Made by a program: the position numbers and the translations under genes
Part shown: piece by piece, positions 13,259 to 63,946 of the stretch
Layout of the letters: each line of letters opens with the position of its first letter
How positions within the stretch are numbered: the stretch's first letter is position 1
Notes under the pieces: model-generated
What the model saw: the letters and a program-made list of their open reading frames with translations, nothing else
What the model was told of the DNA's origin: nothing
Database searches by the model: none
Sequence record: MH051915
Length of the DNA: 64,000 bases
From: Enterobacteria phage vB_EcoM_IME339
Strand: one strand, 5' to 3'

Positions 13259-13780
13259 ATGTTTATTTCAAGTGGAAGTGGTTTAATTCGTGTTGAATTT
13301 AAAAATGACATCTTCCTTATTCAAGGAGACGATATTATTAAAATGAGTTATGATGAAATTAAGAAAATTTGTAATGCTCTTGAAAATCATGGAAAGGTGA
13401 ATGCTGTCATTGATATTGGCGATTTATGGGTGACACTTTATGAAGTATCCGAAGGATTTAACATTGAAGATGAAAACAACATCTTAGCTATTGATAAAAG
13501 AAGCGATTTGTTTGATGTGTTAAAAGTTTATGAACAGTCAAACGGTGGAAGAAAAGCTGCATTGATTTATCAAAAACCACATTCATGTGGAACTGCTTCA
13601 ATTATTTCAGATATTGAAGATGAAACTGATACTTATATGTGTATTTTAAAAGCTGGTGGTGACCGTCATCCGGATTTTATTTCTATTCGTCAAAACAATG
13701 GAGAAATTTCATTATCAAAATCAGAAGCTGAAGCTATGATTAAGTATTTAACAACTGTTACACCTTCAATGAAAGGATGA
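13259..13780 (+). CDS. hypothetical protein (173 aa), paralog of previous ORF
   Basis: C-terminus ...SKSEAEAMIKYLTTVTPSM. Confidence 0.55.
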   Translation: MFISSGSGLIRVEFKNDIFLIQGDDIIKMSYDEIKKICNALENHGKVNAVIDIGDLWVTLYEVSEGFNIEDENNILAIDKRSDLFDVLKVYEQSNGGRKAALIYQKPHSCGTASIISDIEDETDTYMCILKAGGDRHPDFISIRQNNGEISLSKSEAEAMIKYLTTVTPSMKG

Positions 13781-14250
13781 TTATAATTATGGTTATTAAT
13801 GAAAACTCTTGGCATTATAAATTATTCAAAATGTTTAACGACGAATGGAAACGACCTAAGACACTGTGCGCGTATTTTTGGTCTATTGTTATCCCTACAT
13901 TTTTCGTTTCTTTATTCGGATGTACTATGCTCGCAGGTCTAACTATTATCTGCGCAGAAATCATACAGAAATGGCTTATTTTTGGTAGTTTATGGACTCT
14001 TATTCCATCAGCATTTATACTTGCCATTTTGCTTGTTTTACTTATTATTGGTTCATTTGTTATTCCTGCACAACTGCATGAAAAATATAAAGATTATAAA
14101 TGGAAAAAGGATTATGCTTTACATGTAGAAAATATTGATAGGGCGTATAAAGGTTTACCTCCTATTCAACCCAAGAAATCTATTATCGTCGAATTTTTAA
14201 AAGCGCGCAAAGCTAAAGTATGTCCTGTTATTGAATATAAGGCTGAATGA
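13777..14250 (+). CDS. integral membrane protein (157 aa)
   Basis: Several hydrophobic helices; ATGA-coupled to neighbours. Confidence 0.55.
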   Translation: MIIIMVINENSWHYKLFKMFNDEWKRPKTLCAYFWSIVIPTFFVSLFGCTMLAGLTIICAEIIQKWLIFGSLWTLIPSAFILAILLVLLIIGSFVIPAQLHEKYKDYKWKKDYALHVENIDRAYKGLPPIQPKKSIIVEFLKARKAKVCPVIEYKAE

Positions 14251-16810: not shown

Positions 16811-17335
16811 AACGCTAAAGATATTTTCAACTTGGTAAATTACAACGATGGTAAATTTAAATCTGAAGCGCAAAGCAAGTTCTTTAACGACATCTCAATC
16901 GGAGGTGAAATCACTGTTGATGGAGGACAAATTTACAAATCCCGTTGGAATTGGATCGTTATTATTGATGAGATCGGTATTGTAGAAATTTACAAAAATA
17001 CGAATAAAAATCGTACATTGCACTGGTCTCGTGATACTAACGAACAGTACAAAAAGGATAAAGCATCTAAATTATCTCGTGTAACTCAAGAAGATATTGA
17101 GTTCATCAAGAAAGATATTTTAATGTATGATAATTTAATTGCTGAAGAGCAAGCTGTTATTGATAAATTTGACGAGATTAAAGCTTCTCGTGAAATTCCT
17201 GATTTTATGAAAGAATCGGTAAATGAACGATACACTCTCATTTCAGAGCGTATTGAAACTTACAAAAAGCAAAGAGCTGAACGCCAAAATACTCTTCGGA
17301 AGTTTGAAGAACGGTTAAAGACGGTACTCGCATAA
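16808..17335 (+). CDS. hypothetical protein (175 aa)
   Basis: ORF immediately behind cassette copy 3. Confidence 0.5.
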   Translation: MNAKDIFNLVNYNDGKFKSEAQSKFFNDISIGGEITVDGGQIYKSRWNWIVIIDEIGIVEIYKNTNKNRTLHWSRDTNEQYKKDKASKLSRVTQEDIEFIKKDILMYDNLIAEEQAVIDKFDEIKASREIPDFMKESVNERYTLISERIETYKKQRAERQNTLRKFEERLKTVLA

Positions 17336-17390
17336 CCGCTTTATACCAAGGATGGTATAATGGTTCTAAGCCCTTTTAATTGAGATTATT

Positions 17391-17798
17391 ATGAAACAGT
17401 TGATAATTAAAAGATTGAATTTATTGATATGTTGTTTATGTGTAGTAGTTGCATATGGTTATTACGCAATTAATGATTATATGCATTATAAAGATTATGA
17501 TGTTACTGTAGTTAATACCATTACAGGAACACAAGGAAAAGGGTCTAGTTTATCGTTTATTGCCGTATATGAACTCAAAGATGGTTATAGATTTGGTGAA
17601 TATATTTCCCCAGAGATGTATTCTTCAATAGAAAAAGGTGATAATATTACTGTAAGTTTACGTCCTTTCGACGTAAAACAGACATGGTTTGATAATATTG
17701 TTTGGTTCTTTGGAATGGTATTAGTTCAATCTGTGTGTGGTGCTTATATAGTCTGTTCCATCTTATTCTGTATATTTAGTAAAATTGAAATTGAGTGA
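17391..17798 (+). CDS. membrane protein (135 aa)
   Basis: N- and C-terminal hydrophobic helices; -10-like TATAAT upstream. Confidence 0.5.
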   Translation: MKQLIIKRLNLLICCLCVVVAYGYYAINDYMHYKDYDVTVVNTITGTQGKGSSLSFIAVYELKDGYRFGEYISPEMYSSIEKGDNITVSLRPFDVKQTWFDNIVWFFGMVLVQSVCGAYIVCSILFCIFSKIEIE

Positions 17799-23983: not shown

Positions 23984-24457
23984 ATGTTATTGACTGGCAA
24001 ATTATACAAAGAAGAAAAACAGAAATTTTATAATGCACAAAACGGTAAATGCTTAATTTGCCAACGAGAACTAAATCCTGATGTTCAAGCTAATCACCTC
24101 GACCATGACCACGAATTAAATGGACCAAAAGCAGGAAAGGTGCGTGGATTGCTCTGTAATCTTTGCAATGCAGCGGAAGGTCAAATGAAGCATAAATTTA
24201 ATCGTTCTGGCTTAAAGGGACAAGGTGTTGATTATCTTGAATGGTTAGAAAATTTACTTACTTATTTAAAATCCGATTACACCCAAAATAATATTCACCC
24301 TAACTTCGTTGGAGATAAATCAAAGGAATTTTCTCGTTTAGGAAAAGAGGAAATGATGGCTGAGATGCTTCAAAGAGGATTTGAATATAATGAATCTGAC
24401 ACTAAAACACAATTAATAGCTTCATTTAAGAAGCAGCTTAGAAAGAGTTTAAAATGA
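23984..24457 (+). CDS. 49: endonuclease VII (Holliday-junction resolvase), gene 49
   Basis: 157 aa; Zn-binding CLIC...HLDHDH...CNLCN; matches T4 gp49. Confidence 0.9.
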   Translation: MLLTGKLYKEEKQKFYNAQNGKCLICQRELNPDVQANHLDHDHELNGPKAGKVRGLLCNLCNAAEGQMKHKFNRSGLKGQGVDYLEWLENLLTYLKSDYTQNNIHPNFVGDKSKEFSRLGKEEMMAEMLQRGFEYNESDTKTQLIASFKKQLRKSLK

Positions 24458-26271
24458 CAATTGAAAAAGAAATTGAAGGATTGATTCATAAAACTAATAA
24501 AGACCTTTTGAACGAGAATGCTAATAAAGATTCTCGTGTTTTTCCAACTCAACGGGACCTTATGGCTGGTATTGTGTCTAAACACATTGCCAAAAATATG
24601 GTCCCGTCTTTTATTATGAAAGCGCATGAAAGCGGAATTATCCATTTCCATGATATTGATTATTCCCCTGCTCTTCCATTTACTAATTGCTGTTTAGTAG
24701 ATTTAAAAGGAATGCTTGAAAACGGATTTAAGCTCGGTAATGCGCAGATTGAAACTCCTAAATCAATCGGCGTTGCTACTGCAATTATGGCACAAATTAC
24801 TGCACAGGTTGCTTCCCATCAATATGGCGGAACGACTTTTGCGAATGTAGATAAAGTACTTTCTCCTTATGTTAAACGCACCTATGCAAAACATATTGAG
24901 GATGCAGAAAAATGGCAAATCGCTGATGCGTTGAATTATGCCCAATCTAAAACAGAAAAAGACGTATACGATGCATTCCAAGCTTATGAATATGAAGTAA
25001 ATACTCTCTTTAGTTCAAATGGACAAACGCCTTTTGTAACAATTACATTTGGTACGGGAACTGACTGGACTGAACGAATGATTCAGAAAGCAATTCTGAA
25101 AAATCGTATTAAAGGCCTTGGCCGTGATGGAATAACTCCTATTTTCCCTAAGCTTGTTATGTTCGTTGAAGAGGGTGTCAATCTTTATAAAGATGATCCG
25201 AACTATGATATTAAGCAGCTTGCGTTAGAATGTGCAAGCAAAAGAATGTATCCTGATATTATTTCAGCTAAGAACAATAAAGCTATCACCGGTTCATCTA
25301 TTCCTGTTTCTCCAATGGGTTGCCGTAGTTTCTTAAGCGTATGGAAAGATTCGACTGGTAATGAAATTCTTGATGGACGTAATAATCTCGGTGTTGTAAC
25401 ACTGAATCTTCCTCGCATTGCGTTAGATTCTTATATTGGAACACAATTCAATGAACAGAAATTTGCCGAATTGTTCAATGAACGAATGGATTTGTGTTTT
25501 GAAGCTTTGATGTGTAGAATTAGTTCCTTAAAAGGAGTTAAAGCGACCGTTGCTCCTATTCTTTACCAAGAAGGTGCATTCGGGGTTCGTCTTAAACCTG
25601 ATGACGACATAATTGAGTTATTTAAAAACGGTAGAAGTTCAGTGTCCCTAGGATACATTGGTATTCACGAATTGAATATTCTTGTCGGTCGTGATATTGG
25701 ACAGGAAATTTTGACTAAAATGAATGCTCGTCTTAAACGGTGGACTGAAAGAACCGGTTTTGCTTTTAGCTTGTATTCTACTCCTGCTGAAAACCTGTGC
25801 TATCGCTTCTGTAAACTTGATACTGAAAAATATGGAAGTGTAAAAGATGTTACTGATAAAGGCTGGTACACTAATAGTTTCCATGTTTCAGTAGAAGAAA
25901 ATATTACTCCGTTTGAAAAGATTTCTCGCGAAGCCCCATATCATTTCATTGCGACAGGTGGTCACATTTCTTATGTTGAACTTCCTGATATGAAAAATAA
26001 CTTAAAAGGTCTTGAGGCTGTATGGGATTATGCTGCACAACATTTAGATTATTTTGGTGTTAACATGCCAGTAGATAAATGTTTTACATGTGGAAGTACC
26101 CATGAAATGACTCCTACTGAAAACGGATTTGTTTGTTCTATTTGTGGAGAAACTGATCCTAAAAAGATGAATACGATAAGAAGAACTTGTGGTTATTTGG
26201 GAAATCCGAACGAACGCGGATTTAATCTCGGCAAAAATAAAGAAATCATGCATAGGGTTAAACACCAATGA
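24454..26271 (+). CDS. nrdD: anaerobic ribonucleoside-triphosphate reductase NrdD (uninterrupted)
   Basis: 605 aa contiguous ORF; C-terminal glycyl-radical region (...RRTCGYLG) and Cys cluster. Confidence 0.95.
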   Translation: MTIEKEIEGLIHKTNKDLLNENANKDSRVFPTQRDLMAGIVSKHIAKNMVPSFIMKAHESGIIHFHDIDYSPALPFTNCCLVDLKGMLENGFKLGNAQIETPKSIGVATAIMAQITAQVASHQYGGTTFANVDKVLSPYVKRTYAKHIEDAEKWQIADALNYAQSKTEKDVYDAFQAYEYEVNTLFSSNGQTPFVTITFGTGTDWTERMIQKAILKNRIKGLGRDGITPIFPKLVMFVEEGVNLYKDDPNYDIKQLALECASKRMYPDIISAKNNKAITGSSIPVSPMGCRSFLSVWKDSTGNEILDGRNNLGVVTLNLPRIALDSYIGTQFNEQKFAELFNERMDLCFEALMCRISSLKGVKATVAPILYQEGAFGVRLKPDDDIIELFKNGRSSVSLGYIGIHELNILVGRDIGQEILTKMNARLKRWTERTGFAFSLYSTPAENLCYRFCKLDTEKYGSVKDVTDKGWYTNSFHVSVEENITPFEKISREAPYHFIATGGHISYVELPDMKNNLKGLEAVWDYAAQHLDYFGVNMPVDKCFTCGSTHEMTPTENGFVCSICGETDPKKMNTIRRTCGYLGNPNERGFNLGKNKEIMHRVKHQ

Positions 26272-30771: not shown

Positions 30772-31974
30772 ATGAAAGTATGTATTTTTATGGCTCGAGG
30801 TCTTGAAGGTTGCGGTGTAACTAAATTTTCTCTTGAGCAACGTGATTGGTTTATTAAAAATGGTCATGAAGTAACTTTGGTTTATGCTAAAGATAAATCA
30901 TTTACACGTAATTGCGCGCATGATTATAAATCATTTTCAATTCCGGTTTTATTGGCAAAAGAATACGATAAAACACTTAAGCTGGTAAATGATTGTGATA
31001 TTCTAATTATCAATTCAGTTCCTGCTACTTCAGTCGAAGAAGACACTATTAATAACTATAAAAAAATTATTGATAACATTAAACCTTCAGTTCGTGTTGT
31101 AGTTTATCAACATGACCATTCTTCTCTTTCTTTGCGCCGAAATTTGGGATTAGAAGAAACTGTTCGTCGAGCTGATGTTATTTTTAGTCATTCTGATAAT
31201 GGTGATTTTAATAAAGTTCTGATGAAAGAATGGTATCCAGAAACAGTTTCTCTGTTTGATGATATTGAAGAAGCACCGACTGTATACAACTTTCAGCCTC
31301 CTATGGATATTGCGAAGGTTCGATCAACCTACTGGAAAGATGTTTCTGAAATTAACATGAATGTCAACCGTTGGATTGGTCGTACGACTACATGGAAAGG
31401 TTTTTATCAGATGTTTGATTTTCACGAAAAACATCTTAAACCTGCTGGACTAAGTACTATTATGGAAGGTCTGGAACGTTCTCCAGCGTTCATTCCTATT
31501 AAAGAAAAAGGAATTCCATACGAGTATTATCGTCTTCATCAAGTAGACCAAATTAAAATTGCTCCTAATTTGCCAACGCAAATTCTCGACCGTTATGTAA
31601 ATAGCGAAATGCTTGAACGCATGAGTAAATCCGGATTTGGTTATCAGTTGAGTAAGTTGGACAAAAAATATCTACAACGTTCTTTAGAATATACTCATCT
31701 CGAGCTTGGCGCGTGCGGAACAATTCCAGTATTTTGGAAATCTACTGGCGAAAATTTAAAATTCCGTGTTGATAATACTCCGTTAATTTCTCATGATAGT
31801 GGTATCGTTTGGTTTGATGAAAATGACATGGAATCAACATTTGAGCGTATTAAAGAACTGTCATCTGACCGAGCTCTTTATGACTGTGAACGCGAAAAAG
31901 CTTATGAATTTTTGTATCAGCATCAAGATTCAAGCTTCTGCTTTAAAGAACAGTTTGACATTATTACAAAATAA
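30772..31974 (+). CDS. a-gt: DNA alpha-glucosyltransferase
   Basis: 400 aa, MKVCIFMARGLEGCGVTKFSLEQRDWFIKNGHEVTLVYAKDK...; recalled T4 alpha-gt. Confidence 0.9.
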   Translation: MKVCIFMARGLEGCGVTKFSLEQRDWFIKNGHEVTLVYAKDKSFTRNCAHDYKSFSIPVLLAKEYDKTLKLVNDCDILIINSVPATSVEEDTINNYKKIIDNIKPSVRVVVYQHDHSSLSLRRNLGLEETVRRADVIFSHSDNGDFNKVLMKEWYPETVSLFDDIEEAPTVYNFQPPMDIAKVRSTYWKDVSEINMNVNRWIGRTTTWKGFYQMFDFHEKHLKPAGLSTIMEGLERSPAFIPIKEKGIPYEYYRLHQVDQIKIAPNLPTQILDRYVNSEMLERMSKSGFGYQLSKLDKKYLQRSLEYTHLELGACGTIPVFWKSTGENLKFRVDNTPLISHDSGIVWFDENDMESTFERIKELSSDRALYDCEREKAYEFLYQHQDSSFCFKEQFDIITK

Positions 31975-42380: not shown

Positions 42381-43121
42381 ATGATTAATGACTCTATGAC
42401 AGTTGAAGAAATCCGTCTTCATTTGGGAATTGCATTAAAGGAAAAAGATTTCGTAGTTGATAAAACTGGTGTTAAAACTATTGAAATTATTGGTGCATCA
42501 TTTGTAGCAGATGAACCTTTTATTTTTGGCGCTCTTAATGATGAATACATTCAGCGTGAACTTGAATGGTATAAGTCTCAAAGTTTGTTTGTTAAAGATA
42601 TTCCAGGTGAAACACCAAAGATTTGGCAGCAGGTAGCATCTTCTAAAGGCGAAATTAACTCGAATTATGGTTGGGCTATCTGGTCAGAAGATAACTATGC
42701 TCAGTATGATATGTGTTTAGCTGAACTTGGTCAAAATCCTGATTCTCGGCGTGGTATCATGATTTATACTCGTCCATCCATGCAGTTTGACTACAACAAA
42801 GATGGTATGTCAGATTTCATGTGTACGAATACAGTACAGTACCTGATTCGTGATAAGAAAGTCAATGCAGTAGTAAGCATGCGTTCAAATGACGTGGTCT
42901 TCGGATTCCGTAATGATTATGCATGGCAAAAATACGTACTAGATAAATTAGTATCTGATTTGAATGCAGGTGATTCAACTCGCCAGTATAAAGCAGGTTC
43001 CATTATATGGAATGTCGGGAGCCTTCATGTGTATTCTCGTCATTTTTATTTGGTTGACCATTGGTGGAAAACCGGCGAAACTCATATTGCGAAAAAAGAT
43101 TATAATGGTGAGTGGAAATGA
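42381..43121 (+). CDS. 42: dCMP hydroxymethylase gp42
   Basis: 246 aa; thymidylate-synthase-like fold; T4 gp42 length. Confidence 0.95.
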   Translation: MINDSMTVEEIRLHLGIALKEKDFVVDKTGVKTIEIIGASFVADEPFIFGALNDEYIQRELEWYKSQSLFVKDIPGETPKIWQQVASSKGEINSNYGWAIWSEDNYAQYDMCLAELGQNPDSRRGIMIYTRPSMQFDYNKDGMSDFMCTNTVQYLIRDKKVNAVVSMRSNDVVFGFRNDYAWQKYVLDKLVSDLNAGDSTRQYKAGSIIWNVGSLHVYSRHFYLVDHWWKTGETHIAKKDYNGEWK

Positions 43122-43960
43122 TTCAATTTGTAATTCCAAGCTATCAACGCGTAGGGGCAGTTTCTGCCCTTGATATGTTTCCGACTGATTATGAACCTCA
43201 TATTGTAGTACGTGAACATGAAGAAAAAGCTTATTATGACGCTTACGGGTCTAGAGCTAAAATTATAACTATTCCTGATGATGTTAATGGAATTGCTGGA
43301 ACTCGTAAAGCAATTACTGATATGTATGCAGGTCAACGAATTTGGATGATTGATGATGATACTACTATTCGTATGAGTTCAATGCGAAAGAAAGATGATC
43401 GTCGCTGCGTAGATAAAATTAATCAATTAACTCGTGAACAGTTCTATGAATTGATTCAATACGTGGAAGATGCCATGGATTGCGGGTATTATCACGGTCA
43501 TGCTCGTCTACCTATTTTTAAAATTACTTCATCTTGGGGTAATTATCGTGAAAATTCATATGGATTCACGAATACATGGTATGACCTCGGAAAACTTACT
43601 ACAGAACAAATTGGGTATGGAAAAATTGATTTATGCGAAGATATGTATGCATTTCTCAATTTAATTAACCAAGGTTATCCGCATTTGGCTTTGTTCAAAT
43701 ATCTGGTTGTGTCTGGAAAAGCGCAGGCTCCTGGCGGATGTAGTTCAATTCGTAGTAATTCAAAACATAATAGAGCTCTTGAGCAAATCAATAGAGAGTT
43801 TCCAGAGCAAGCTCGTTGGAAAACTTCTAATATTGAAAAACGAAAATCATTAGGTGAAGAAGACGAGCCATTAAAGGTTCTTCGTATGTGTGTTTCGCGC
43901 AAAGAAAAATCAGAAGCGTTTCATAAGTTTAATGCTATTCATCCAATAGCAGTCGATTAA
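43118..43960 (+). CDS. putative glycosyltransferase (DxD motif) at the beta-gt position
   Basis: 280 aa, ...RIWMIDDDTT...; unlike recalled T4 beta-gt; may correspond to T2/T6-type beta-alpha-gt. Confidence 0.55.
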   Translation: MIQFVIPSYQRVGAVSALDMFPTDYEPHIVVREHEEKAYYDAYGSRAKIITIPDDVNGIAGTRKAITDMYAGQRIWMIDDDTTIRMSSMRKKDDRRCVDKINQLTREQFYELIQYVEDAMDCGYYHGHARLPIFKITSSWGNYRENSYGFTNTWYDLGKLTTEQIGYGKIDLCEDMYAFLNLINQGYPHLALFKYLVVSGKAQAPGGCSSIRSNSKHNRALEQINREFPEQARWKTSNIEKRKSLGEEDEPLKVLRMCVSRKEKSEAFHKFNAIHPIAVD

Positions 43961-47229: not shown

Positions 47230-47472
47230 ATGCATATTGTTTTATTTAAACCTACTCCGTATAATGTCAGGAAAAATACTCAATTCAAAGCACTTGTTGC
47301 AGATACGTGGGAATTGGTGTTAGATATTCCAGCAGAAGAAAGTCCTCCATTTGGTCGAGTGGAATTTATTAAGTTTGCTGTGCGCCCTACGAAGCGACAG
47401 ATTCGCCAATGCAAAAGATACTTTCGTAAAATCGTCAAGTTAGAGAAACAGTTATTGATGCTAGTAAAATAG
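47230..47472 (+). CDS. hypothetical protein (80 aa; 61.4 position)
   Basis: ORF track 47188; ATG 47230 behind SD. Confidence 0.5.
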   Translation: MHIVLFKPTPYNVRKNTQFKALVADTWELVLDIPAEESPPFGRVEFIKFAVRPTKRQIRQCKRYFRKIVKLEKQLLMLVK

Positions 47473-47474
47473 TA

Positions 47475-47504
47475 GTTTACAAGCTGATAGAGTTGTGTTA
47501 TAGT
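47475..47504 (+). promoter_or_regulatory. early promoter with inverted repeat over -10
   Basis: GTTTAC, 18 nt, TATAGT; 'gctgatagag...ctatcagc'. Confidence 0.5.
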
Positions 47505-47535
47505 AATTCTATCAGCTAATCGCGGAGAAAAGAAA

Positions 47536-47790
47536 ATGATGCTAGTTAATAGAGAATATCAGTTTAAATCAGAAGAAGATTTGGAAAAATTCGCGAGTGG
47601 TTGTGAACTGAATAGACGCACAGCTAAAGTCATAGGATTAAAACCCTTTACAGTTCTAGATTGTGAAGTTTCTAAATTCCGCAGAGGGTGTTCTATTAGC
47701 GGTCATGCTCTGGTTGATGGGAACACATTTTTCTTTGTTTTTAGCGTCAGAGAACTTTTATTGATTAACGAACTTGAGGAAATAAAATAG
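47536..47790 (+). CDS. hypothetical protein (84 aa)
   Basis: ORF track. Confidence 0.5.
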   Translation: MMLVNREYQFKSEEDLEKFASGCELNRRTAKVIGLKPFTVLDCEVSKFRRGCSISGHALVDGNTFFFVFSVRELLLINELEEIK

Positions 47791-47854
47791 TTTACTTTTA
47801 TTTTAAACATGTTATTATAGACCTATCAAAACAAACGAGTAAATGGAGAACAAA

Positions 47855-48037
47855 ATGTCTAAAGTATCAGGTTATCAATTATTAACACAAGAACAACGTT
47901 CAGAGATGGATTCTTTACAAGAACGGTGTCAGCATAGAAATAACGCACTTGATTCATTTTTATTAGTTGAATATGAAAACTTGTGCTCTAGACTTGAAAA
48001 AGAATATGTTCATCAACATGAAGGAGGAGAAGAATGA
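47855..48037 (+). CDS. hypothetical protein (60 aa)
   Basis: ORF track 47843; ATG 47855 behind GGAG. Confidence 0.45.
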   Translation: MSKVSGYQLLTQEQRSEMDSLQERCQHRNNALDSFLLVEYENLCSRLEKEYVHQHEGGEE

Positions 48038-48140
48038 AACTGAAATCACCAATTATTGCAATTTGTCTGTTTGCTTCTACTAGTGTTTACTTTTGTTGAA
48101 AATTGAGATACTATAAACATAAACTACTGAGGAGATTATC

Positions 48141-48446: not shown

Positions 48447-48803
48447 ATGTATAGTTCTGAATTTTCATATTTAAAAATGGAAAAAATTTCATACGATTTT
48501 ATAGATGAAAAGGTTTATTACAGTTTCCATGAACCATGTTTTAATAGTGAGGTCGGGTTTATTGTAGTAAAAGACAATTTCATTTTAAAAATATATTCGG
48601 CATTAAAGGATTTTCACTACGAAAATATTAACCTAAAATTTGACAAAGAAAACGTTCGTAATTGCGCAGTAACAATTACAGGAAATAAAGGTACATGCGT
48701 TATGCTATCTGATGAAATTAATGATTTGTTAAATGATGCCGAAAAGGTTGCTATTCCATCGATTGATGACCAAATTTTTAATGCTTTTATGAATAGAGGT
48801 TAA
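48447..48803 (+). CDS. hypothetical protein (118 aa; 61.2 position)
   Basis: ORF track. Confidence 0.5.
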   Translation: MYSSEFSYLKMEKISYDFIDEKVYYSFHEPCFNSEVGFIVVKDNFILKIYSALKDFHYENINLKFDKENVRNCAVTITGNKGTCVMLSDEINDLLNDAEKVAIPSIDDQIFNAFMNRG

Positions 48804-50197: not shown

Positions 50198-50268
50198 ATA
50201 TCCTCCTTATTGCTTTATATATTTATTGTATAATTAATCTACTAATCCATGAATTGAAAGGAAAAATA

Positions 50269-53619: not shown

Positions 53620-53645
53620 AGCTTCTGAAGTATATGGAGGCTATC

Positions 53646-54269
53646 ATGATTATTAATCTTGCAGATGTTGAACAGTTATCTATAAAAGCTGAAAGCGTTG
53701 ATTTTCAATATGATATGTATAAAAAGGTCTGTGAAAAATTTACTGACTTTGAACAGTCAGTTCTTTGGCAATGTATGGAAGCCAAAAAGAATGAAGCTCT
53801 TCATCGGCAGTTGAATAAAATCATTAAAAAGCATTTAACTAAATCACCTTATCAGCTATATCGTGGTATATCAAAATCGACAAAAGAACTCATTAAAGAT
53901 TTACAAGTTGGAGAAGTGTTTTCAACGAATAGAGTAGATTCATTTACTACTAGTTTGCACACAGCGTGCGGTTTTTCTTATGTTGAGTATTTCACTGAAA
54001 TAATATTTCGCTTAAAAACTGATAAAGCTTTTAATTATTCTGACCATATCAGCGATATTATACTTTCTTCTCCTAATACTGAGTTTAAGTATACATATGA
54101 AGATACTGACGGATTAGATTCAGAACGTACTGATAACTTAATGATGATTGTGCGTGAACAAGAATGGATGATTCCAATTGGAAAGTATAAAATAACTTCT
54201 ATTTCAAAAGAAAAATTACACGATTCATTTGGAACATTTAAAGTGTATGATATTGAGGTAGTTGAATGA
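53646..54269 (+). CDS. modB: ADP-ribosyltransferase (ModB-like)
   Basis: R-S-E triad: YRG, STN, EQEW. Confidence 0.7.
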   Translation: MIINLADVEQLSIKAESVDFQYDMYKKVCEKFTDFEQSVLWQCMEAKKNEALHRQLNKIIKKHLTKSPYQLYRGISKSTKELIKDLQVGEVFSTNRVDSFTTSLHTACGFSYVEYFTEIIFRLKTDKAFNYSDHISDIILSSPNTEFKYTYEDTDGLDSERTDNLMMIVREQEWMIPIGKYKITSISKEKLHDSFGTFKVYDIEVVE

Positions 54270-54868
54270 AATATTCAGCAATGCAATTAAAAGATTTTAA
54301 AATCAAATCAATGGATGCATCGGTGCGTGCTTCTATTCGTGAAGAATTACTTTCTGAAGGATTTAATTTATCTGAAATTGAACTTTTAATTCATTGTATT
54401 ACTAATAAGCCAGACGATCATTCTTGGTTAAATGAAATAATCAAATCTCGTTTGGTTCCAAACGATAAACCTCTTTGGAGAGGTGTTCCAGTTGAGACTA
54501 AGCAGGTGTTAAATCAAGGAATTGATATTATTACATTTGATAAAGTAGTATCAGCTTCATATGATAAAAATATAGCTCTACATTTTGCTTCTGGATTAGA
54601 ATACAACACGCAAGTTATTTTTGAATTCAAAGCTCCTATGGTATTTAATTTCCAGGAGTATGCTATAAAAGCTCTACGTTGTAAAGAATATAGTCCGAGT
54701 TTTAAGTTTCCAGATAGCCATCGTTATCGTAATATGGAATTAGTTTCAGATGAACAAGAAGTAATGATACCAGCTGGAAGTGTATTTAGAATTGCGGATA
54801 GATACGAGTATAAAAAGCATTCAACATACACTATCTATACTCTTGACTTTGAAGGATTTAATCTATAA
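54266..54868 (+). CDS. modA: ADP-ribosyltransferase (ModA-like)
   Basis: R-S-E triad: WRG, SAS, EQEV; paralog of previous gene. Confidence 0.7.
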   Translation: MKYSAMQLKDFKIKSMDASVRASIREELLSEGFNLSEIELLIHCITNKPDDHSWLNEIIKSRLVPNDKPLWRGVPVETKQVLNQGIDIITFDKVVSASYDKNIALHFASGLEYNTQVIFEFKAPMVFNFQEYAIKALRCKEYSPSFKFPDSHRYRNMELVSDEQEVMIPAGSVFRIADRYEYKKHSTYTIYTLDFEGFNL

Positions 54869-54984
54869 TGGAAGGACTTAGATTCATTATACCATGAAAG
54901 TTTTAAAGCATTTTTCATAAAGTTGTTTACAAGCTGAAGTAAAAATGTTATAGTATAAGTAGTTAACCCGTCCGTGAGAAAAAT

Positions 54985-55731
54985 ATGAAACTGTCTAATA
55001 ATCAAATTCGTAAAATTACACGTCGCTTAGAGCATACTCAGGCATCTGCCAAAAGACGTTCTAAAGATTTTAACTTAGACTTCAATTACATTAAGAACAT
55101 TTTAGATCAGAAAGTTTGCGCTTACTCGGGAGAACCTTTTGATAATCGTATTGAAGGAGAGAAATTATCATTAGAACGTTTTGATAATAACGTTGGATAC
55201 ATTAAAGGGAATGTTATTGCAGTAAAGAAAAAGTATAATACATTTCGTTCTGATTATACTTTAGAAGAGTTGATTGAAAAGCGTGATTTATTTGCTTTGC
55301 GAATTGGTCGTTCATCTGCGAAAAAAGTTCATAAACTAAATTTAGATGAAAAGAAATGGGCTAAAATCAAAAAGACTTATAATCAAATTAAAGCTATACA
55401 GAAAAAACGTGAAAACCGAATTGAGCACATTTCTCAGCTTTCTAAATCAAAACAAACTTCTGACGTTAAGCTAACGATTATAGCACTTAAAGCTCGTATT
55501 GATGGTTCTCGTATAGCAGAAGGCGCTGAAGTTGTTAAATTGAACGTTCTTCTTAAAGGCTCGGATTGGAAAACTGTGAAAAAGCTGTCAGAAGCAGAAA
55601 TGCAATATGATATGTGTGATAAAATTATTCAAGGTGTAGAGCGGTATCAAAACTTGTCTTTTATTGATAAACTTAAACTGAAAAGAGGATACCCGCTAAA
55701 TTGTTCAATTTTTAAACTTATCCGAGGATAA
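54985..55731 (+). CDS. 248-aa protein at the srd map position with degenerate HNH-like motif
   Basis: CAYSGEPF...SLERFDNNVGYIKGNVIAV resembles phage HNH motif but lacks C-terminal Zn cysteines. Confidence 0.5.
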   Translation: MKLSNNQIRKITRRLEHTQASAKRRSKDFNLDFNYIKNILDQKVCAYSGEPFDNRIEGEKLSLERFDNNVGYIKGNVIAVKKKYNTFRSDYTLEELIEKRDLFALRIGRSSAKKVHKLNLDEKKWAKIKKTYNQIKAIQKKRENRIEHISQLSKSKQTSDVKLTIIALKARIDGSRIAEGAEVVKLNVLLKGSDWKTVKKLSEAEMQYDMCDKIIQGVERYQNLSFIDKLKLKRGYPLNCSIFKLIRG

Positions 55732-55732
55732 T

Positions 55733-56044
55733 ATGTTTTATGTATATGCGATAGTGTATAGAGATAAAGATGGATTTGCGGTGCCTGTTCCTCTTGATGA
55801 ACATCGCCCTGCTGTATTTTTTGAAAGGGAGATTGCTGATAAAGTATTTACAACTCTTAAAGAGCAGTATCAACTAGCTTTAGGTATGGGAATTCCGAGA
55901 TTAGTTGAGACTCCACGCAAGTTTTGGTTTAATAAAATAGAAGTTAAACATGTTAAGCCTGATGTAGACACGCAAAGATTATATCGGCGAATTTTAGATA
56001 CTGGGCGTATTGTTAGTATACCAATTGCAGGGAATTTACGATGA
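55733..56044 (+). CDS. hypothetical protein (103 aa; dda.1 position)
   Basis: ORF track; ATGA-coupled to dda. Confidence 0.5.
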   Translation: MFYVYAIVYRDKDGFAVPVPLDEHRPAVFFEREIADKVFTTLKEQYQLALGMGIPRLVETPRKFWFNKIEVKHVKPDVDTQRLYRRILDTGRIVSIPIAGNLR

Positions 56045-57360
56045 CATTTGATGATTTGACAGAAGGCCAGAAAAATGCCTTTAACATCGTTATGAGGGCT
56101 ATCAAAGAAAAGAAACATCATGTAACTATTAATGGACCTGCCGGTACTGGTAAAACTACTCTTACTAAGTTCATCATTGAAGCTTTAATATCTACGGGCG
56201 AAACTGGCATTATTTTAGCAGCTCCTACACATGCAGCTAAAAAGATTCTTTCAAAACTGTCAGGGAAAGAAGCGAGTACTATTCATAGTATTCTTAAAAT
56301 TAACCCCGTAACATACGAAGAAAACGTTCTTTTTGAACAAAAAGAAGTACCGGATTTAGCCAAATGTAGAGTATTAATCTGCGACGAAGTGTCAATGTAT
56401 GATAGAAAGCTATTTAAAATTCTGCTTTCAACTATCCCGCCATGGTGTACTATAATTGGAATAGGCGATAATAAGCAAATTAGACCTGTTGACCCAGGGG
56501 AAAACACTGCTTATATCAGTCCATTCTTTACACATAAAGATTTTTATCAGTGTGAACTCACTGAAGTTAAACGCAGTAATGCTCCTATTATTGATGTAGC
56601 TACTGATGTTCGCAACGGTAAGTGGATTTATGATAAAGTTGTTGACGGACATGGAGTACGTGGATTTACTGGTGATACCGCTTTACGCGATTTTATGGTA
56701 AATTATTTTTCAATCGTTAAATCACTAGATGATTTGTTTGAAAATCGCGTAATGGCATTTACGAATAAATCTGTTGATAAGTTAAATAGCATTATTCGTA
56801 AAAAGATTTTTGAAACTGATAAAGATTTTATTGTCGGTGAAATTATTGTAATGCAGGAACCGTTAATTAAAACATATAAAATTGATGGAAAGCCTGTGTC
56901 AGAAATTATTTTTAATAACGGACAATTAGTTCGTATTATAGAAGCAGAATATACATCAACATTTGTTAAAGCTCGTGGCGTTCCTGGAGAATATCTAATT
57001 CGTCATTGGGATTTAACAGTAGAAACTTACGGTGATGATGAATATTATCGTGAAAAGATTAAAATAATTTCATCTGATGAAGAGCTGTATAAGTTTAACT
57101 TATTTTTAGGTAAAACTGCAGAAACTTACAAAAATTGGAATAAAGGTGGAAAAGCTCCATGGAGCGATTTTTGGGATGCTAAATCACAGTTTAGTAAAGT
57201 GAAAGCACTTCCTGCATCAACATTCCATAAAGCTCAGGGCATGTCTGTAGACCGTGCTTTTATCTATACGCCTTGTATCCATTATGCAGATGCTGAACTA
57301 GCTCAGCAGCTTCTTTATGTTGGTGTAACACGTGGTCGTTATGATGTATTTTATGTATGA
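56041..57360 (+). CDS. dda: DNA helicase Dda (SF1)
   Basis: 439 aa; Walker A GPAGTGKTT; T4 Dda length. Confidence 0.95.
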   Translation: MTFDDLTEGQKNAFNIVMRAIKEKKHHVTINGPAGTGKTTLTKFIIEALISTGETGIILAAPTHAAKKILSKLSGKEASTIHSILKINPVTYEENVLFEQKEVPDLAKCRVLICDEVSMYDRKLFKILLSTIPPWCTIIGIGDNKQIRPVDPGENTAYISPFFTHKDFYQCELTEVKRSNAPIIDVATDVRNGKWIYDKVVDGHGVRGFTGDTALRDFMVNYFSIVKSLDDLFENRVMAFTNKSVDKLNSIIRKKIFETDKDFIVGEIIVMQEPLIKTYKIDGKPVSEIIFNNGQLVRIIEAEYTSTFVKARGVPGEYLIRHWDLTVETYGDDEYYREKIKIISSDEELYKFNLFLGKTAETYKNWNKGGKAPWSDFWDAKSQFSKVKALPASTFHKAQGMSVDRAFIYTPCIHYADAELAQQLLYVGVTRGRYDVFYV

Positions 57361-59114: not shown

Positions 59115-59657
59115 ATGAAATTTAATTATAATCCTGAATACACCCCAAATCCTATAGATAAAATATTTGATATGGATATAGCAAGCATGTACGGCACTCT
59201 TGTTAAACCATTAGAAATTAAGGAAACTTTTATGACTGCTCGGACCATCGAAATTGGCAAAATCTACAAACTGGTTGAAACTGAAATTAAAACTACTGAA
59301 CTAAGTTTGGGTTATAAAGCATTGACTAGTGTTTTTGGTGAAGGCGAGTTTGTGGTTAAAAGTTTTTCAAAAAGTAACTGGCACGATAAGAATAAAGCTT
59401 ACGTGATTCGAGCACAACGCTTAGATAATGATGAAGTAATTAAAACTATAGTCTTTGAAGCAGAGCTTATCCTCTTTCAAGAATGCGATCCTACTGACCT
59501 TCTAACTCGTGCAGTAGCTATTAAGACCCCATTTATTTCGGTCTGTGGTTGGGTAACAGACCAGTGGATTGAAGATGGTGTTGAACTTCTGAATGTTGTT
59601 CATGCAGGTGATTTTAGTGTAGTACCTCGTAGTGCGGTGGTAGCTATTTTGAATTAA
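59115..59657 (+). CDS. hypothetical protein (180 aa), paralog of next ORF
   Basis: C-terminus ...VTDQWIEDGVELLNVVHAGDFSVVP matches next ORF. Confidence 0.5.
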   Translation: MKFNYNPEYTPNPIDKIFDMDIASMYGTLVKPLEIKETFMTARTIEIGKIYKLVETEIKTTELSLGYKALTSVFGEGEFVVKSFSKSNWHDKNKAYVIRAQRLDNDEVIKTIVFEAELILFQECDPTDLLTRAVAIKTPFISVCGWVTDQWIEDGVELLNVVHAGDFSVVPRSAVVAILN

Positions 59658-62078: not shown

Positions 62079-62128
62079 CTTTATGATTACCGGAGTATAA
62101 TATTCCCGAAACCAAACGAGGATAAGTG

Positions 62129-63946
62129 ATGATTAAGAATGAAATTAAAATTCTGAGCGATATTGAACATATCAAAAAGCGTAGCGGCATGTATATTGGC
62201 TCTTCTGCTAATGAAATGCATGAGCGCTTTCTGTTTGGTAAATGGGAAAGTGTTCAGTATGTACCTGGTCTTGTTAAGCTTATTGATGAAATTATCGATA
62301 ACTCAGTAGATGAAGGTATTCGTACTAAGTTTAAATTCGCAAATAAAATTAATGTTACTATCAAAAACAATCAAGTAACAGTTGAAGATAACGGTCGTGG
62401 TATTCCACAAGCGATGGTTAAAACACCTACCGGTGAAGAAATTCCTGGTCCAGTTGCTGCATGGACTATTCCAAAAGCAGGTGGTAACTTTGGTGATGAT
62501 AAAGAACGCGTCACCGGCGGTATGAACGGCGTTGGTTCTAGTTTAACTAACATTTTTTCTGTGATGTTTGTCGGTGAAACTGGCGACGGTCAAAATAATA
62601 TTGTAGTTCGTTGTTCAAACGGCATGGAAAATAAATCATGGGAAGATATTCCTGGAAAATGGAAAGGAACTCGCGTTACTTTCATTCCCGATTTTATGTC
62701 ATTTGAAACTAATGAGCTATCTCAGGTTTATCTTGACATTACACTGGATCGTCTCCAGACACTTGCAGTAGTTTATCCTGATATTCAATTTACCTTTAAT
62801 GGTAAAAAGGTTCAGGGTAATTTTAAGAAATATGCACGTCAATATGATGAACATGCTATCGTTCAAGAACAAGAAAACTGTTCTATTGCGGTTGGTCGTT
62901 CACCGGATGGTTTTCGTCAATTAACATACGTCAATAACATTCATACTAAGAATGGCGGCCATCACATTGACTGCGTTATGGATGATATTTGTGAAGACCT
63001 TATTCCGCAAATCAAACGTAAATTCAAAATTGATGTAACTAAAGCACGTGTTAAAGAATGTTTGACTATCGTTATGTTTGTTCGTGATATGAAAAACATG
63101 CGATTTGATTCTCAAACTAAAGAGCGTTTGACTTCTCCTTTTGGTGAAATTCGTAGTCATATTCAGCTTGATGCTAAAAAGATTTCACGCGCTATTTTAA
63201 ATAATGAAGCAATTTTAATGCCAATCATTGAAGCTGCCTTGGCTCGTAAATTGGCGGCAGAAAAAGCAGCAGAAACTAAAGCAGCTAAAAAGGCTTCTAA
63301 AGCTAAGGTTCATAAACATATTAAAGCGAATCTTTGTGGTAAAGATGCTGACACTACTCTTTTCTTGACTGAGGGTGATTCTGCTATCGGATATCTTATT
63401 GATGTTCGTGATAAAGAACTTCATGGTGGTTATCCATTACGTGGTAAAGTTCTCAACAGTTGGGGTATGTCATATGCTGATATGCTTAAAAATAAAGAAC
63501 TGTTTGATATTTGCGCAATCACTGGATTAGTTCTTGGTGAAAAGGCTGAAAACTTAAATTATCATAATATTGCCATTATGACTGACGCTGACCATGATGG
63601 TCTAGGAAGCATTTATCCTTCTCTGCTCGGATTTTTTAGTAATTGGCCAGAACTGTTTGAACAAGGAAGAATTCGCTTTGTCAAAACTCCTGTAATCATC
63701 GCTCAGGTCGGTAAAAAACAAGAATGGTTTTATACAGTCGCTGAATATGAGAGTGCCAAAGATGCTCTACCTAAACATAGCATCCGTTATATTAAAGGAC
63801 TTGGCTCTTTGGAAAAATCTGAATATCGTGAGATGATTCAAAATCCAGTATATGATGTTGTTAAACTTCCTGAGAACTGGAAAGAGCTTTTTGAAATGCT
63901 CATGGGAGATAATGCTGACCTTCGTAAAGAATGGATGAGCCAATAG
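62129..63946 (+). CDS. 39: DNA topoisomerase II large subunit, uninterrupted
   Basis: 605 aa; GyrB-like ATPase motifs; extends through the region T4 splits into gene 60. Confidence 0.95.
   Translation: MIKNEIKILSDIEHIKKRSGMYIGSSANEMHERFLFGKWESVQYVPGLVKLIDEIIDNSVDEGIRTKFKFANKINVTIKNNQVTVEDNGRGIPQAMVKTPTGEEIPGPVAAWTIPKAGGNFGDDKERVTGGMNGVGSSLTNIFSVMFVGETGDGQNNIVVRCSNGMENKSWEDIPGKWKGTRVTFIPDFMSFETNELSQVYLDITLDRLQTLAVVYPDIQFTFNGKKVQGNFKKYARQYDEHAIVQEQENCSIAVGRSPDGFRQLTYVNNIHTKNGGHHIDCVMDDICEDLIPQIKRKFKIDVTKARVKECLTIVMFVRDMKNMRFDSQTKERLTSPFGEIRSHIQLDAKKISRAILNNEAILMPIIEAALARKLAAEKAAETKAAKKASKAKVHKHIKANLCGKDADTTLFLTEGDSAIGYLIDVRDKELHGGYPLRGKVLNSWGMSYADMLKNKELFDICAITGLVLGEKAENLNYHNIAIMTDADHDGLGSIYPSLLGFFSNWPELFEQGRIRFVKTPVIIAQVGKKQEWFYTVAEYESAKDALPKHSIRYIKGLGSLEKSEYREMIQNPVYDVVKLPENWKELFEMLMGDNADLRKEWMSQ

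Follow-up and report, generated by a model that had tools for sequence, protein, structure and literature searches.

The open reading frame (ORF) at positions 54985..55731 (+ strand) of Enterobacteria phage vB_EcoM_IME339 (sequence record MH051915, of which the 64,000-nucleotide stretch analysed here is called the window) was identified by sequence comparison as the full-length srd ortholog of a T2/T6-like Tequatrovirus. The best overall explanation, which we hold with good confidence, is that srd is an immediate-early host-takeover gene, and neither a homing endonuclease nor a decaying one. Its N-terminal domain is very likely a true homolog of the PacI-type His-Me finger, because fold prediction, fold search, profile search and reciprocal search all point there. 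The srd gene itself is already known, and the clade to which its N-terminal domain belongs, that of PacI-type His-Me fingers, is a known one. An original prediction for this ORF had described a degenerate HNH-like motif, possibly left by a domesticated or decaying endonuclease, and had added that the true Srd might happen to have this fold; it is the last of these suggestions that the four lines of evidence support.

The coding sequence begins with ATG and specifies 248 amino acids and a stop codon (28.9 kDa, isoelectric point (pI) 9.9), with the segments CAYSGEPF and SLERFDNNVGYIKGNVIAVKKKYN exactly as had been quoted. The product shows 98.4% identity to T4 Srd (NP_049634) over residues 1-248 by tblastn, with four residue differences, and is 100% identical to Srd of Escherichia phage ECO07P1. 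In PHROGs it is assigned to phrog_1400, 'Srd anti-sigma factor' (7.7e-108, residues 4-248). Matches to srd were found by tblastn in 1180 phage records out of the 50,697 searched, 1079 of them with at least 80% query coverage.

Fold and family of the Srd N-terminal domain

AlphaFold2 (AF2) models were obtained for the full-length protein, using an alignment of 19 Srd sequences, and for the N-terminal domain alone, using 58 diverse domain copies. The predicted local distance difference test score (pLDDT) was 87.8 for the full-length model, with block means >93 over residues 11-100, and 91.9 for the domain alone, with a predicted template modelling score (pTM) of 0.75. The N-terminal domain (residues 1-110; 54985..55314, +), classified from AF2, Foldseek and profile results as a PacI-type (Group 20) His-Me finger without zinc sites, is predicted to contain helices at residues 5-24 and 33-40, a beta-strand at 61-65, an omega-loop at 66-76, a second strand at 77-81 and an alpha-helix at 82-90. 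The two leading helices and the beta-beta-alpha unit are common to both models, and the confidently predicted beta-beta-alpha domain spans residues ~10-98. The beta-hairpin followed by an alpha-helix that is diagnostic of the superfamily is predicted with pLDDT >90.

The C-terminal half (residues 116-248; 55330..55728, +) is modelled as a helical hairpin (122-153 and 159-191) followed by shorter helices and a conserved tail at residues ~216-248, which contains FIDKLKLKRGYPL. Low pLDDT values occur at residues 111-117 and 195-199. No recognisable family was found for this half, for which the Foldseek and profile matches were of coiled-coil type only, and we regard it as a candidate RNase E-binding or oligomerisation part. 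Both halves of the protein are basic (pI 9.75 and 9.98).

A Foldseek search of the PDB with the full-length model returned PacI (3ldy_A) first, with a probability of 1.00 over 98 columns and an E-value of 0.17, and the remaining matches were coiled-coil matches to the C-terminal half. When the domain model was used, the four best matches were all HNH nucleases and the rest had low probability: three chains of the Gme HNH nuclease 4h9d (E 0.014-0.016, probability 0.98-0.99) and PacI (E 0.087, probability 0.98, query-normalised template modelling score (TMq) 0.60, 115 columns). In the Foldseek viral library the Srd orthologs were followed by a Ralstonia phage 'HNH endonuclease' and by proteins of Pandoravirus, Pithovirus and Klosneuvirus, which are taxa that compose Group 20.

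A HMMER scan of 1.84 billion cluster representatives with Srd residues 1-115 retrieved 2191 proteins at E<=1e-3, counted as representatives at 50% clustering, of which 81 were found at E<=1e-10. The domain occurs among these relatives in varied architectures, N-terminal, C-terminal or in tandem, and many carry two to four copies; an 852-amino-acid 'unnamed protein product' of the dinoflagellate Polarella glacialis contains four matched stretches. One relative (P0068) lies in a phage-like block among small unannotated genes. A homolog search with a 110-residue fragment gave four fragments only, and no second copy of the domain was found in the 64-kb window or in T4 1-100 kb. The family of 2191 representatives has no Pfam or NCBIfam model, and appears to be an expansion of the PacI-type clade that is without zinc sites and has gone unannotated. 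PHROGs links Srd residues ~10-98 to families labelled 'endonuclease' (1.8e-18), 'HNH endonuclease' (5.4e-17) and 'endonuclease VII' (1.2e-7), and the labels on these sister families indicate that automated pipelines came close to a nuclease assignment.

A profile (A3) built from 58 diverse domain copies was searched against 177,635 PDB sequences using hmmsearch, and PacI was the sole credible match (E=0.019), with the motif residues in register. Aligned by hhalign, A3 and a PacI fragment gave a probability of 82% (E 1e-5), compared to 0.3% for gp49, 0.6% for T4 MobD and 0.8% for T4 MobB as controls. Reciprocally, the PacI fragment was searched against 175 collected proteins mixed with 3,500 shuffled decoys: all 40 matches listed by phmmer were real proteins (best 2.2e-6), and jackhmmer started from PacI recovered 173 of the 175 proteins, Srd among them (7e-26), and zero decoys. 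The identity between PacI and the Srd domain is about 15-18%.

The active site of His-Me fingers comprises a near-invariant His that ends strand 1 and a metal-binding Asn or His in the first helix turn, and Asp, Glu or His often stands directly before the catalytic His (PMC5714182). In Group 20 of the same classification (Jablonska et al. 2017), which consists of PacI and mostly giant-virus proteins (88 sequences, predominantly viral, without a Pfam family), the His is absent and a Tyr of the omega-loop assumes its role. The single metal ion of PacI has one Asp and one Asn as its ligands, and the Tyr has been placed as the general base (PMC4081073, a review of Type II restriction enzymes).

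Seven motif residues of PacI align with Srd at one constant offset of 28 residues, without a gap. At the end of beta-strand 1 (E64-R65; 55174..55179, +), E64 corresponds to the metal ligand D92 and R65 to R93, at the position held by the catalytic His in other HNH enzymes. In the omega-loop (G71-Y72; 55195..55200, +), G71 corresponds to G99 and Y72 to Y100, the tyrosine proposed as substitute for the catalytic His; Y100 is the only Tyr in its loop, and Y72 sits between both strands in the AF2 models. N76 (55210..55212, +) is the counterpart of N104, the structural Asn that forms the middle N of H-N-H. The segment K81-K-K-Y84-N85-T-F-R88 (55225..55248, +), from which helix 82-90 is formed, supplies N85, equivalent to the metal ligand N113 in the first helix turn, and R88, equivalent to K116, the Lys/Arg after the metal Asn. 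Judged from this alignment, all PacI active-site positions are kept in Srd: E64, R65, G71-Y72 (with Y72 as general base or nucleophile), N76, N85 and R88. Both metal-ligand positions are thereby occupied, N85 at the first helix turn and E64 in strand 1 before the catalytic position, and, as in Group 20, the His is absent and an omega-loop Tyr is present instead.

Conservation was counted over the 150 closest cluster representatives, which supplied 233 domain copies. C45 is retained in 228/230 copies, E/D64 in 232/233, R65 in 229/233, G71 in 228/233, Y72 in 230/233, N76 in 233/233, N85 in 232/232 and K/R88 in 186/200, and the signature of the 233 copies is C-[AP]-Y-[ST]-G ... [ST]-[LIF]-[ED]-R-[ILFV]-[DN]-N-x-x-G-Y-x-x-G-N-[VI]-x-x-[VI]-x4-N-x-x-[KR]. 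Since an Arg occupies the expected position of the HNH His, at the end of strand 1, in Srd and likewise in 229 of the 233 copies, it is a fixed family trait and no lesion in Srd. The motif residues are also unchanged across 19 Srd orthologs, the most distant of which has 31% identity, and 26 of the 31 invariant columns lie within residues 21-96. Identity of 18 orthologs to this Srd is 52-97% over residues 10-98, 7-63% over residues 99-215 and 22-82% in the C-tail; by these figures, conservation within Srd is highest in the N-terminal domain.

The HNH-like motif noticed in the original prediction is therefore genuine, being invariant in the orthologs, near-invariant in the domain copies and led to PacI by the profile. 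Calling it degenerate is misleading: the missing His defines the PacI clade, and Srd keeps the omega-loop Tyr and both metal-ligand positions. As a trait of that clade the missing His is no sign of decay, and a decaying endonuclease is further contradicted by the domain being the best conserved part of Srd. A domesticated one is conceivable only in the loose sense of an ancient nuclease domain that was recruited.

The replacement of the zinc-binding cysteines (IAVKKKYN), which had also been pointed out, was borne out. At the PacI zinc site C63/C66/C109/C112, Srd has C45/S48/K81/Y84, so that C66, C109 and C112 are replaced and C45 alone is left; C45-A-Y-S48 (55117..55128, +) is a remnant of the PacI CxxC zinc knuckle C63-G-Y-C66, of which the first Cys only is kept. 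Position 48 is S/T in 179/230 domain copies, and most relatives of the domain are likewise without the zinc-site cysteines.

Proposed function and alternative explanations

T4 Srd is a binding partner of the N-terminal half of RNase E, which is the catalytic one, and it raises host mRNA degradation (Qi et al. 2015, Genetics 201:977, cited in PMC13232886, PMC4980113 and PMC9409239); in the citing passages it is named beside RapZ as one of a small number of proteins known to bind to this half and to promote cleavage. Given the 98% identity, RNase E binding and the acceleration of mRNA decay are presumed to hold for the Srd of the window. We propose that the N-terminal domain would be the working nucleic-acid-engaging module of Srd, which would hold or cut the phosphodiester backbone with one metal ion, that the helical half and the conserved C-tail would make protein contacts, for example with the catalytic half of RNase E, and that both parts together would speed host mRNA decay early in infection. 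Cloned srd is reportedly deleterious to E. coli.

Whether the domain is still catalytically active in Srd is, on the retained residues, nearly an even call, because the known inactive His-Me domains lost their catalytic residues and Srd and its relatives did not. The products of His-Me nucleases carry 5'-phosphate ends, and RNA with a 5'-monophosphate is the preferred substrate of RNase E. A bolder version, which we think rather improbable, is that Srd is an active Tyr-dependent one-metal nuclease whose first cuts in host transcripts (or nicks in host nucleic acid) would license these as RNase E substrates. If true, 5'-monophosphorylated fragments would feed the 5' sensor of RNase E, and the 'stimulation' would be at least partly licensing, not allosteric activation. 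Srd would then be an RNase E-docked phage nuclease, and the 2191-representative family a large class of PacI-type nucleases without zinc, so far unrecognised, that spans phages, giant viruses and some eukaryotes.

Several observations weigh against a PacI-type nuclease domain in Srd. The Foldseek E-values are modest (0.014-0.17, none <=1e-3). A profile of full-length Srd orthologs alone (A1) did not reach PacI among the PDB sequences and gave weak coiled-coil matches, so the sequence link between Srd and PacI needs the broader family profile; phmmer of Srd against the PDB sequences gave no match. In the searches against profile libraries, Srd had no match to Pfam HNH, HNH_3, Endonuclease_7 or AP2 at E<=10; Pfam applied to 134 relatives gave no nuclease family, returning coiled-coil noise and four weak Stc1 matches, and NCBIfam gave no match to Srd and seven relatives. 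PacI has two Cys4 zinc sites, of which the second lies outside the alignment, and at the aligned site one of the four Cys is kept, so that PacI is a rather distant structural template for Srd. The lone C45 (55117-55119) is near-invariant though its zinc-site partners are non-Cys in Srd and in most relatives. As to catalysis, no nuclease activity of Srd has been reported in the literature, and the passages of PMC13232886, PMC4980113 and PMC9409239 that deal with Srd describe the mRNA effect as stimulation of RNase E, a description that suits an adaptor or activator no less than it suits a nuclease; the conserved 'catalytic' residues could serve structure or binding.

One alternative is an exapted, catalytically dead PacI-type fold that serves as a protein- or RNA-binding scaffold, as an RNase E adaptor or as an allosteric activator like RapZ, its 'active-site' residues being kept for folding or binding. 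We consider this a serious possibility, somewhat below an even chance, and its weight is almost equal to that of an active domain. The phenotype as described in the citing literature, stimulation of RNase E with Srd bound to its catalytic half, agrees with it, as does the loss of three of the four aligned zinc ligands, and there are precedents for inactive His-Me fingers that took on a binding role, namely the SMAD MH1 and Enpp nuclease-like domains (PMC5714182). Those domains, however, lost both the His and the Tyr substitute, whereas Srd and 230 of the 233 copies keep the Tyr, and both metal-ligand positions are kept too. The N-terminal domain is moreover more conserved than the remainder of Srd, even across hosts with differing RNase E, which also speaks against this alternative.

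If the motif resemblance were a coincidence and the fold of Srd unrelated to PacI, the lack of a match to any curated HNH model, the Foldseek E-values above 0.01 and the failure of the Srd-only profile to find PacI would all be expected. Such a chance match is very unlikely, since the predicted fold, the PDB profile, hhalign with its controls and the reciprocal decoy search converge on PacI in the same register, with seven motif residues at one constant offset and no gap; it was rejected on these four independent lines. That a homing endonuclease of the seg/mob (HNH) type, domesticated or in decay, sits at the srd position is hardly credible. The HNH-core-like motif, the replaced zinc cysteines and the PHROG relatives labelled HNH endonuclease are what such an origin would leave, but it is contradicted by 98% full-length Srd orthology with fixed synteny in more than 1000 phage records, by purifying selection that is strongest on the N-terminal domain, and by a missing His that is a clade trait. 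The real homing-endonuclease sites of T4 are sporadic and are all empty in the window, tblastn with MobA-D gave no match at srd, and hhalign with MobB and MobD stayed below 1%. A seg/mob-type enzyme was accordingly rejected on orthology, synteny and the Mob comparison. The alignment with T4 Srd and the Mob proteins that had been suggested as a check showed full-length orthology to the former and no detectable relation to MobB or MobD. It had also been held that clear full-length orthology to T4 Srd with no match to an HNH profile would count against an HNH-like element; this is formally what was found, but the rule is too narrow because the domain is without a Pfam or NCBIfam model, and the motif is still genuine.

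The name Srd is said to stem from a similarity to rpoD proposed by Mosig and co-workers in 1998, and the databases still name the protein an anti-sigma factor. A role as anti-sigma factor or as a decoy of sigma-70/sigma-S ('similarity with rpoD') is thus the annotation carried by T4 and many phage records, and we regard it as highly improbable. Pfam showed no sigma-70 region family in Srd at E<=10, the Foldseek matches included no sigma or anti-sigma structure, and later experiments, as related in PMC13232886, PMC4980113 and PMC9409239, assign Srd to RNase E stimulation. With no sigma-related profile or fold match, the sigma decoy was rejected.

The srd locus and homing endonucleases in the window

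The ORF lies at the srd position, as had been stated, with modA and dda.1 on its flanks; the gene order modB-modA-srd-dda.1-dda is that of T4, in the same orientation. Synteny upstream is established by the modB-modA block (53634..54868, +), in which modB (T4 match 53646-54266, +) and modA (54266-54868, +) encode ADP-ribosyltransferases with 96.6% and 97.5% identity to T4 ModB and ModA, respectively. Downstream, the block 55733..57360 contains dda.1 (55733-56044, +) and the dda helicase gene (56041-57360, +). The same neighbours surround srd in ECO07P1. In the distant Yersinia phage MHG19 the srd locus lies beside dda.1 and dda, and the N-terminal domain alone is recognisable, with 56% identity.

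A promoter-like site, TTTACA-17-TATAGT with an extended TG (54926..54954, +), is located ~30 nt 5' of the srd ATG in the 116-bp gap between modA and srd. It scores 10/12, the best of the region, and the count of such sites is not above shuffle expectation. The site is probably the srd early promoter, although its score and placement are no more than suggestive of this. A terminator-like site was not detected.

The claim that the window lacks homing endonucleases was upheld by tblastn with T4 seg, mob and I-TevII proteins, by a synteny map and by scans of gap ORFs. The tblastn queries, taken from T4 1-100 kb, were SegA, SegB, SegC, SegF, I-TevII and MobA-D, and returned nothing in the window (best E 0.02, where there is no such ORF) and none at srd; segD, segE, segG, mobE, I-TevI and I-TevIII were covered by the synteny map and the gap scans. 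No Pfam match of Srd to GIY-YIG, HNH or HNH_3 was found at E<=10. In the blastn synteny map the junctions are clean at the nrdD intron/I-TevII (24989/24992), mobC (26288/26268), mobB (30756/30781), segF, segA and mobA/60.1 (63546/63611). Non-T4 gaps of more than 300 bp, scanned with Pfam and PHROGs, contained no endonuclease ORF; their ORFs include an internal virion protein, goF-like, AdfA-like and MotB-like ORFs and small conserved ORFs. It was likewise correct that nrdD is intron-less, being one 609-codon frame (24442-26268), and that gene 39 is unsplit, genes 39 and 60 forming one 606-codon frame (62126-63943). Homing-endonuclease content varies widely among T-even phages, and all three features, the absence of these enzymes, the intron-less nrdD and the unsplit gene 39, are ordinary variation of this kind. 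Sporadic presence and absence, as of a mobile gene, was not seen for srd. The gene is full length in 1079 records, sits at one locus in phages from T4 to MHG19 and, being syntenic in T4-like phages and present in nearly all of them, does not behave as a mobile gene.

The window does encode a canonical zinc-containing His-Me nuclease, gp49 endonuclease VII (23984-24454, +; 99% to T4), which is a resolvase and no homing enzyme, and which was missing from the original prediction. At the T4 mobD position, 13259-14250 (+) encodes a y05I-like putative transcription factor (Pfam T4_y05I_N and T4_y05I_C) and a 157-amino-acid predicted membrane protein (phrog_944), both ORFs being unrelated to mobD. 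In place of beta-gt and segA, 43112-43960 (+) encodes a 282-amino-acid beta-glucosyl-HMC-alpha-glucosyltransferase (phrog_842, 1.9e-89; Pfam TAGT, 1.2e-9), and alpha-gt is present at 30772-31971 with 90.5% identity; going by these genes, DNA glucosylation is of the T2/T6 type rather than the T4 type. The T4 dam gene (T4 16846-17625) is cleanly missing at the gene 61-gene 56 junction (window 50208-50229), tblastn with T4 Dam gave nothing in the 64-kb window, and gene 56 is unusually diverged (72.6% nucleotide identity vs 88-98% elsewhere).

Further differences from T4 were noted at three places. An insertion of ~630 bp at 47453-48084 (T4 20146/20110) encodes an 84-amino-acid ORF matching the PHROG 'goF mRNA metabolism modulator' (3.2e-20) and a 64-amino-acid ORF. 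At the 61.2 position, a 118-amino-acid ORF (48447-48803, +) matches only the C-terminal positions 129-211 of the 211 in Pfam AdfA, 'Anti-DarT factor A' (4.4e-8), and may be a shortened variant of this anti-defence gene. At the motB.1 position, a 180-amino-acid ORF (59115-59657, +) has an N-terminal part belonging to an unknown PHROG family (phrog_2333) and 35-60 C-terminal residues that match MotB-like transcription regulators (Pfam motB, 2.9e-8), which suggests that it may be a mosaic gene.

Comparison with known systems

The ORF is the gene known as srd in T4, with the same neighbours, orientation and PHROG family (phrog_1400). In the record annotations and literature examined, its N-terminal domain is nowhere described as a nuclease fold, and that literature gives no mechanism or domain assignment for Srd. 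A literature search of incomplete coverage yielded no paper that ties Srd to PacI, HNH or His-Me nucleases, and Srd is not mentioned in the main text of the 2017 classification of His-Me fingers (PMC5714182). The assignment should be useful to T4 and RNase E specialists: with a PacI-type site in its most conserved domain, the mechanism of Srd becomes testable by a few point mutants.

RapZ offers a functional analogy only, and no relation between it and Srd was found in sequence or fold. RapZ serves as an adaptor that presents one small RNA, whereas a broad action on host mRNAs is reported for Srd. The gp49 endonuclease VII and T4 MobA-E belong to the same His-Me finger superfamily and occur in the same type of genome as Srd. 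The motifs H-x-D-H-D-H and CxxC...CxxC of gp49 are both absent from Srd, and the Mob genes are sporadic and absent from the window, whereas srd is syntenic and widespread. The Gme HNH nicking endonuclease (4h9d) and the small phage-type HNH nucleases share the compact beta-beta-alpha core and gave the best E-value obtained with the domain model (0.014), but no sequence-level match of Srd to Gme HNH-type nucleases was found. These enzymes use the canonical catalytic His, which Srd does not have.

PacI (PDB 3ldy/3m7k) resembles Srd in the beta-beta-alpha core, in the N-terminal helices that precede it, in the Arg that stands for the catalytic His, and in the omega-loop G-Y, the Asp/Glu and Asn metal ligands, the structural Asn and the Lys/Arg, all at identical spacing. 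Srd differs by an additional helical half of 140 residues and by its known partner, which is an RNase, and cleavage of DNA by Srd is not reported in the literature. Group 20 as published comprises 88 sequences, mainly from giant viruses, and no T4-like phage member is mentioned in the main text (PMC5714182), compared to 2191 cluster representatives at E<=1e-3 in the family described here. On the present assignment, the PacI-like branch of the His-Me fingers is far larger than 88 sequences, and includes a near-universal early gene of the T4-like phages.

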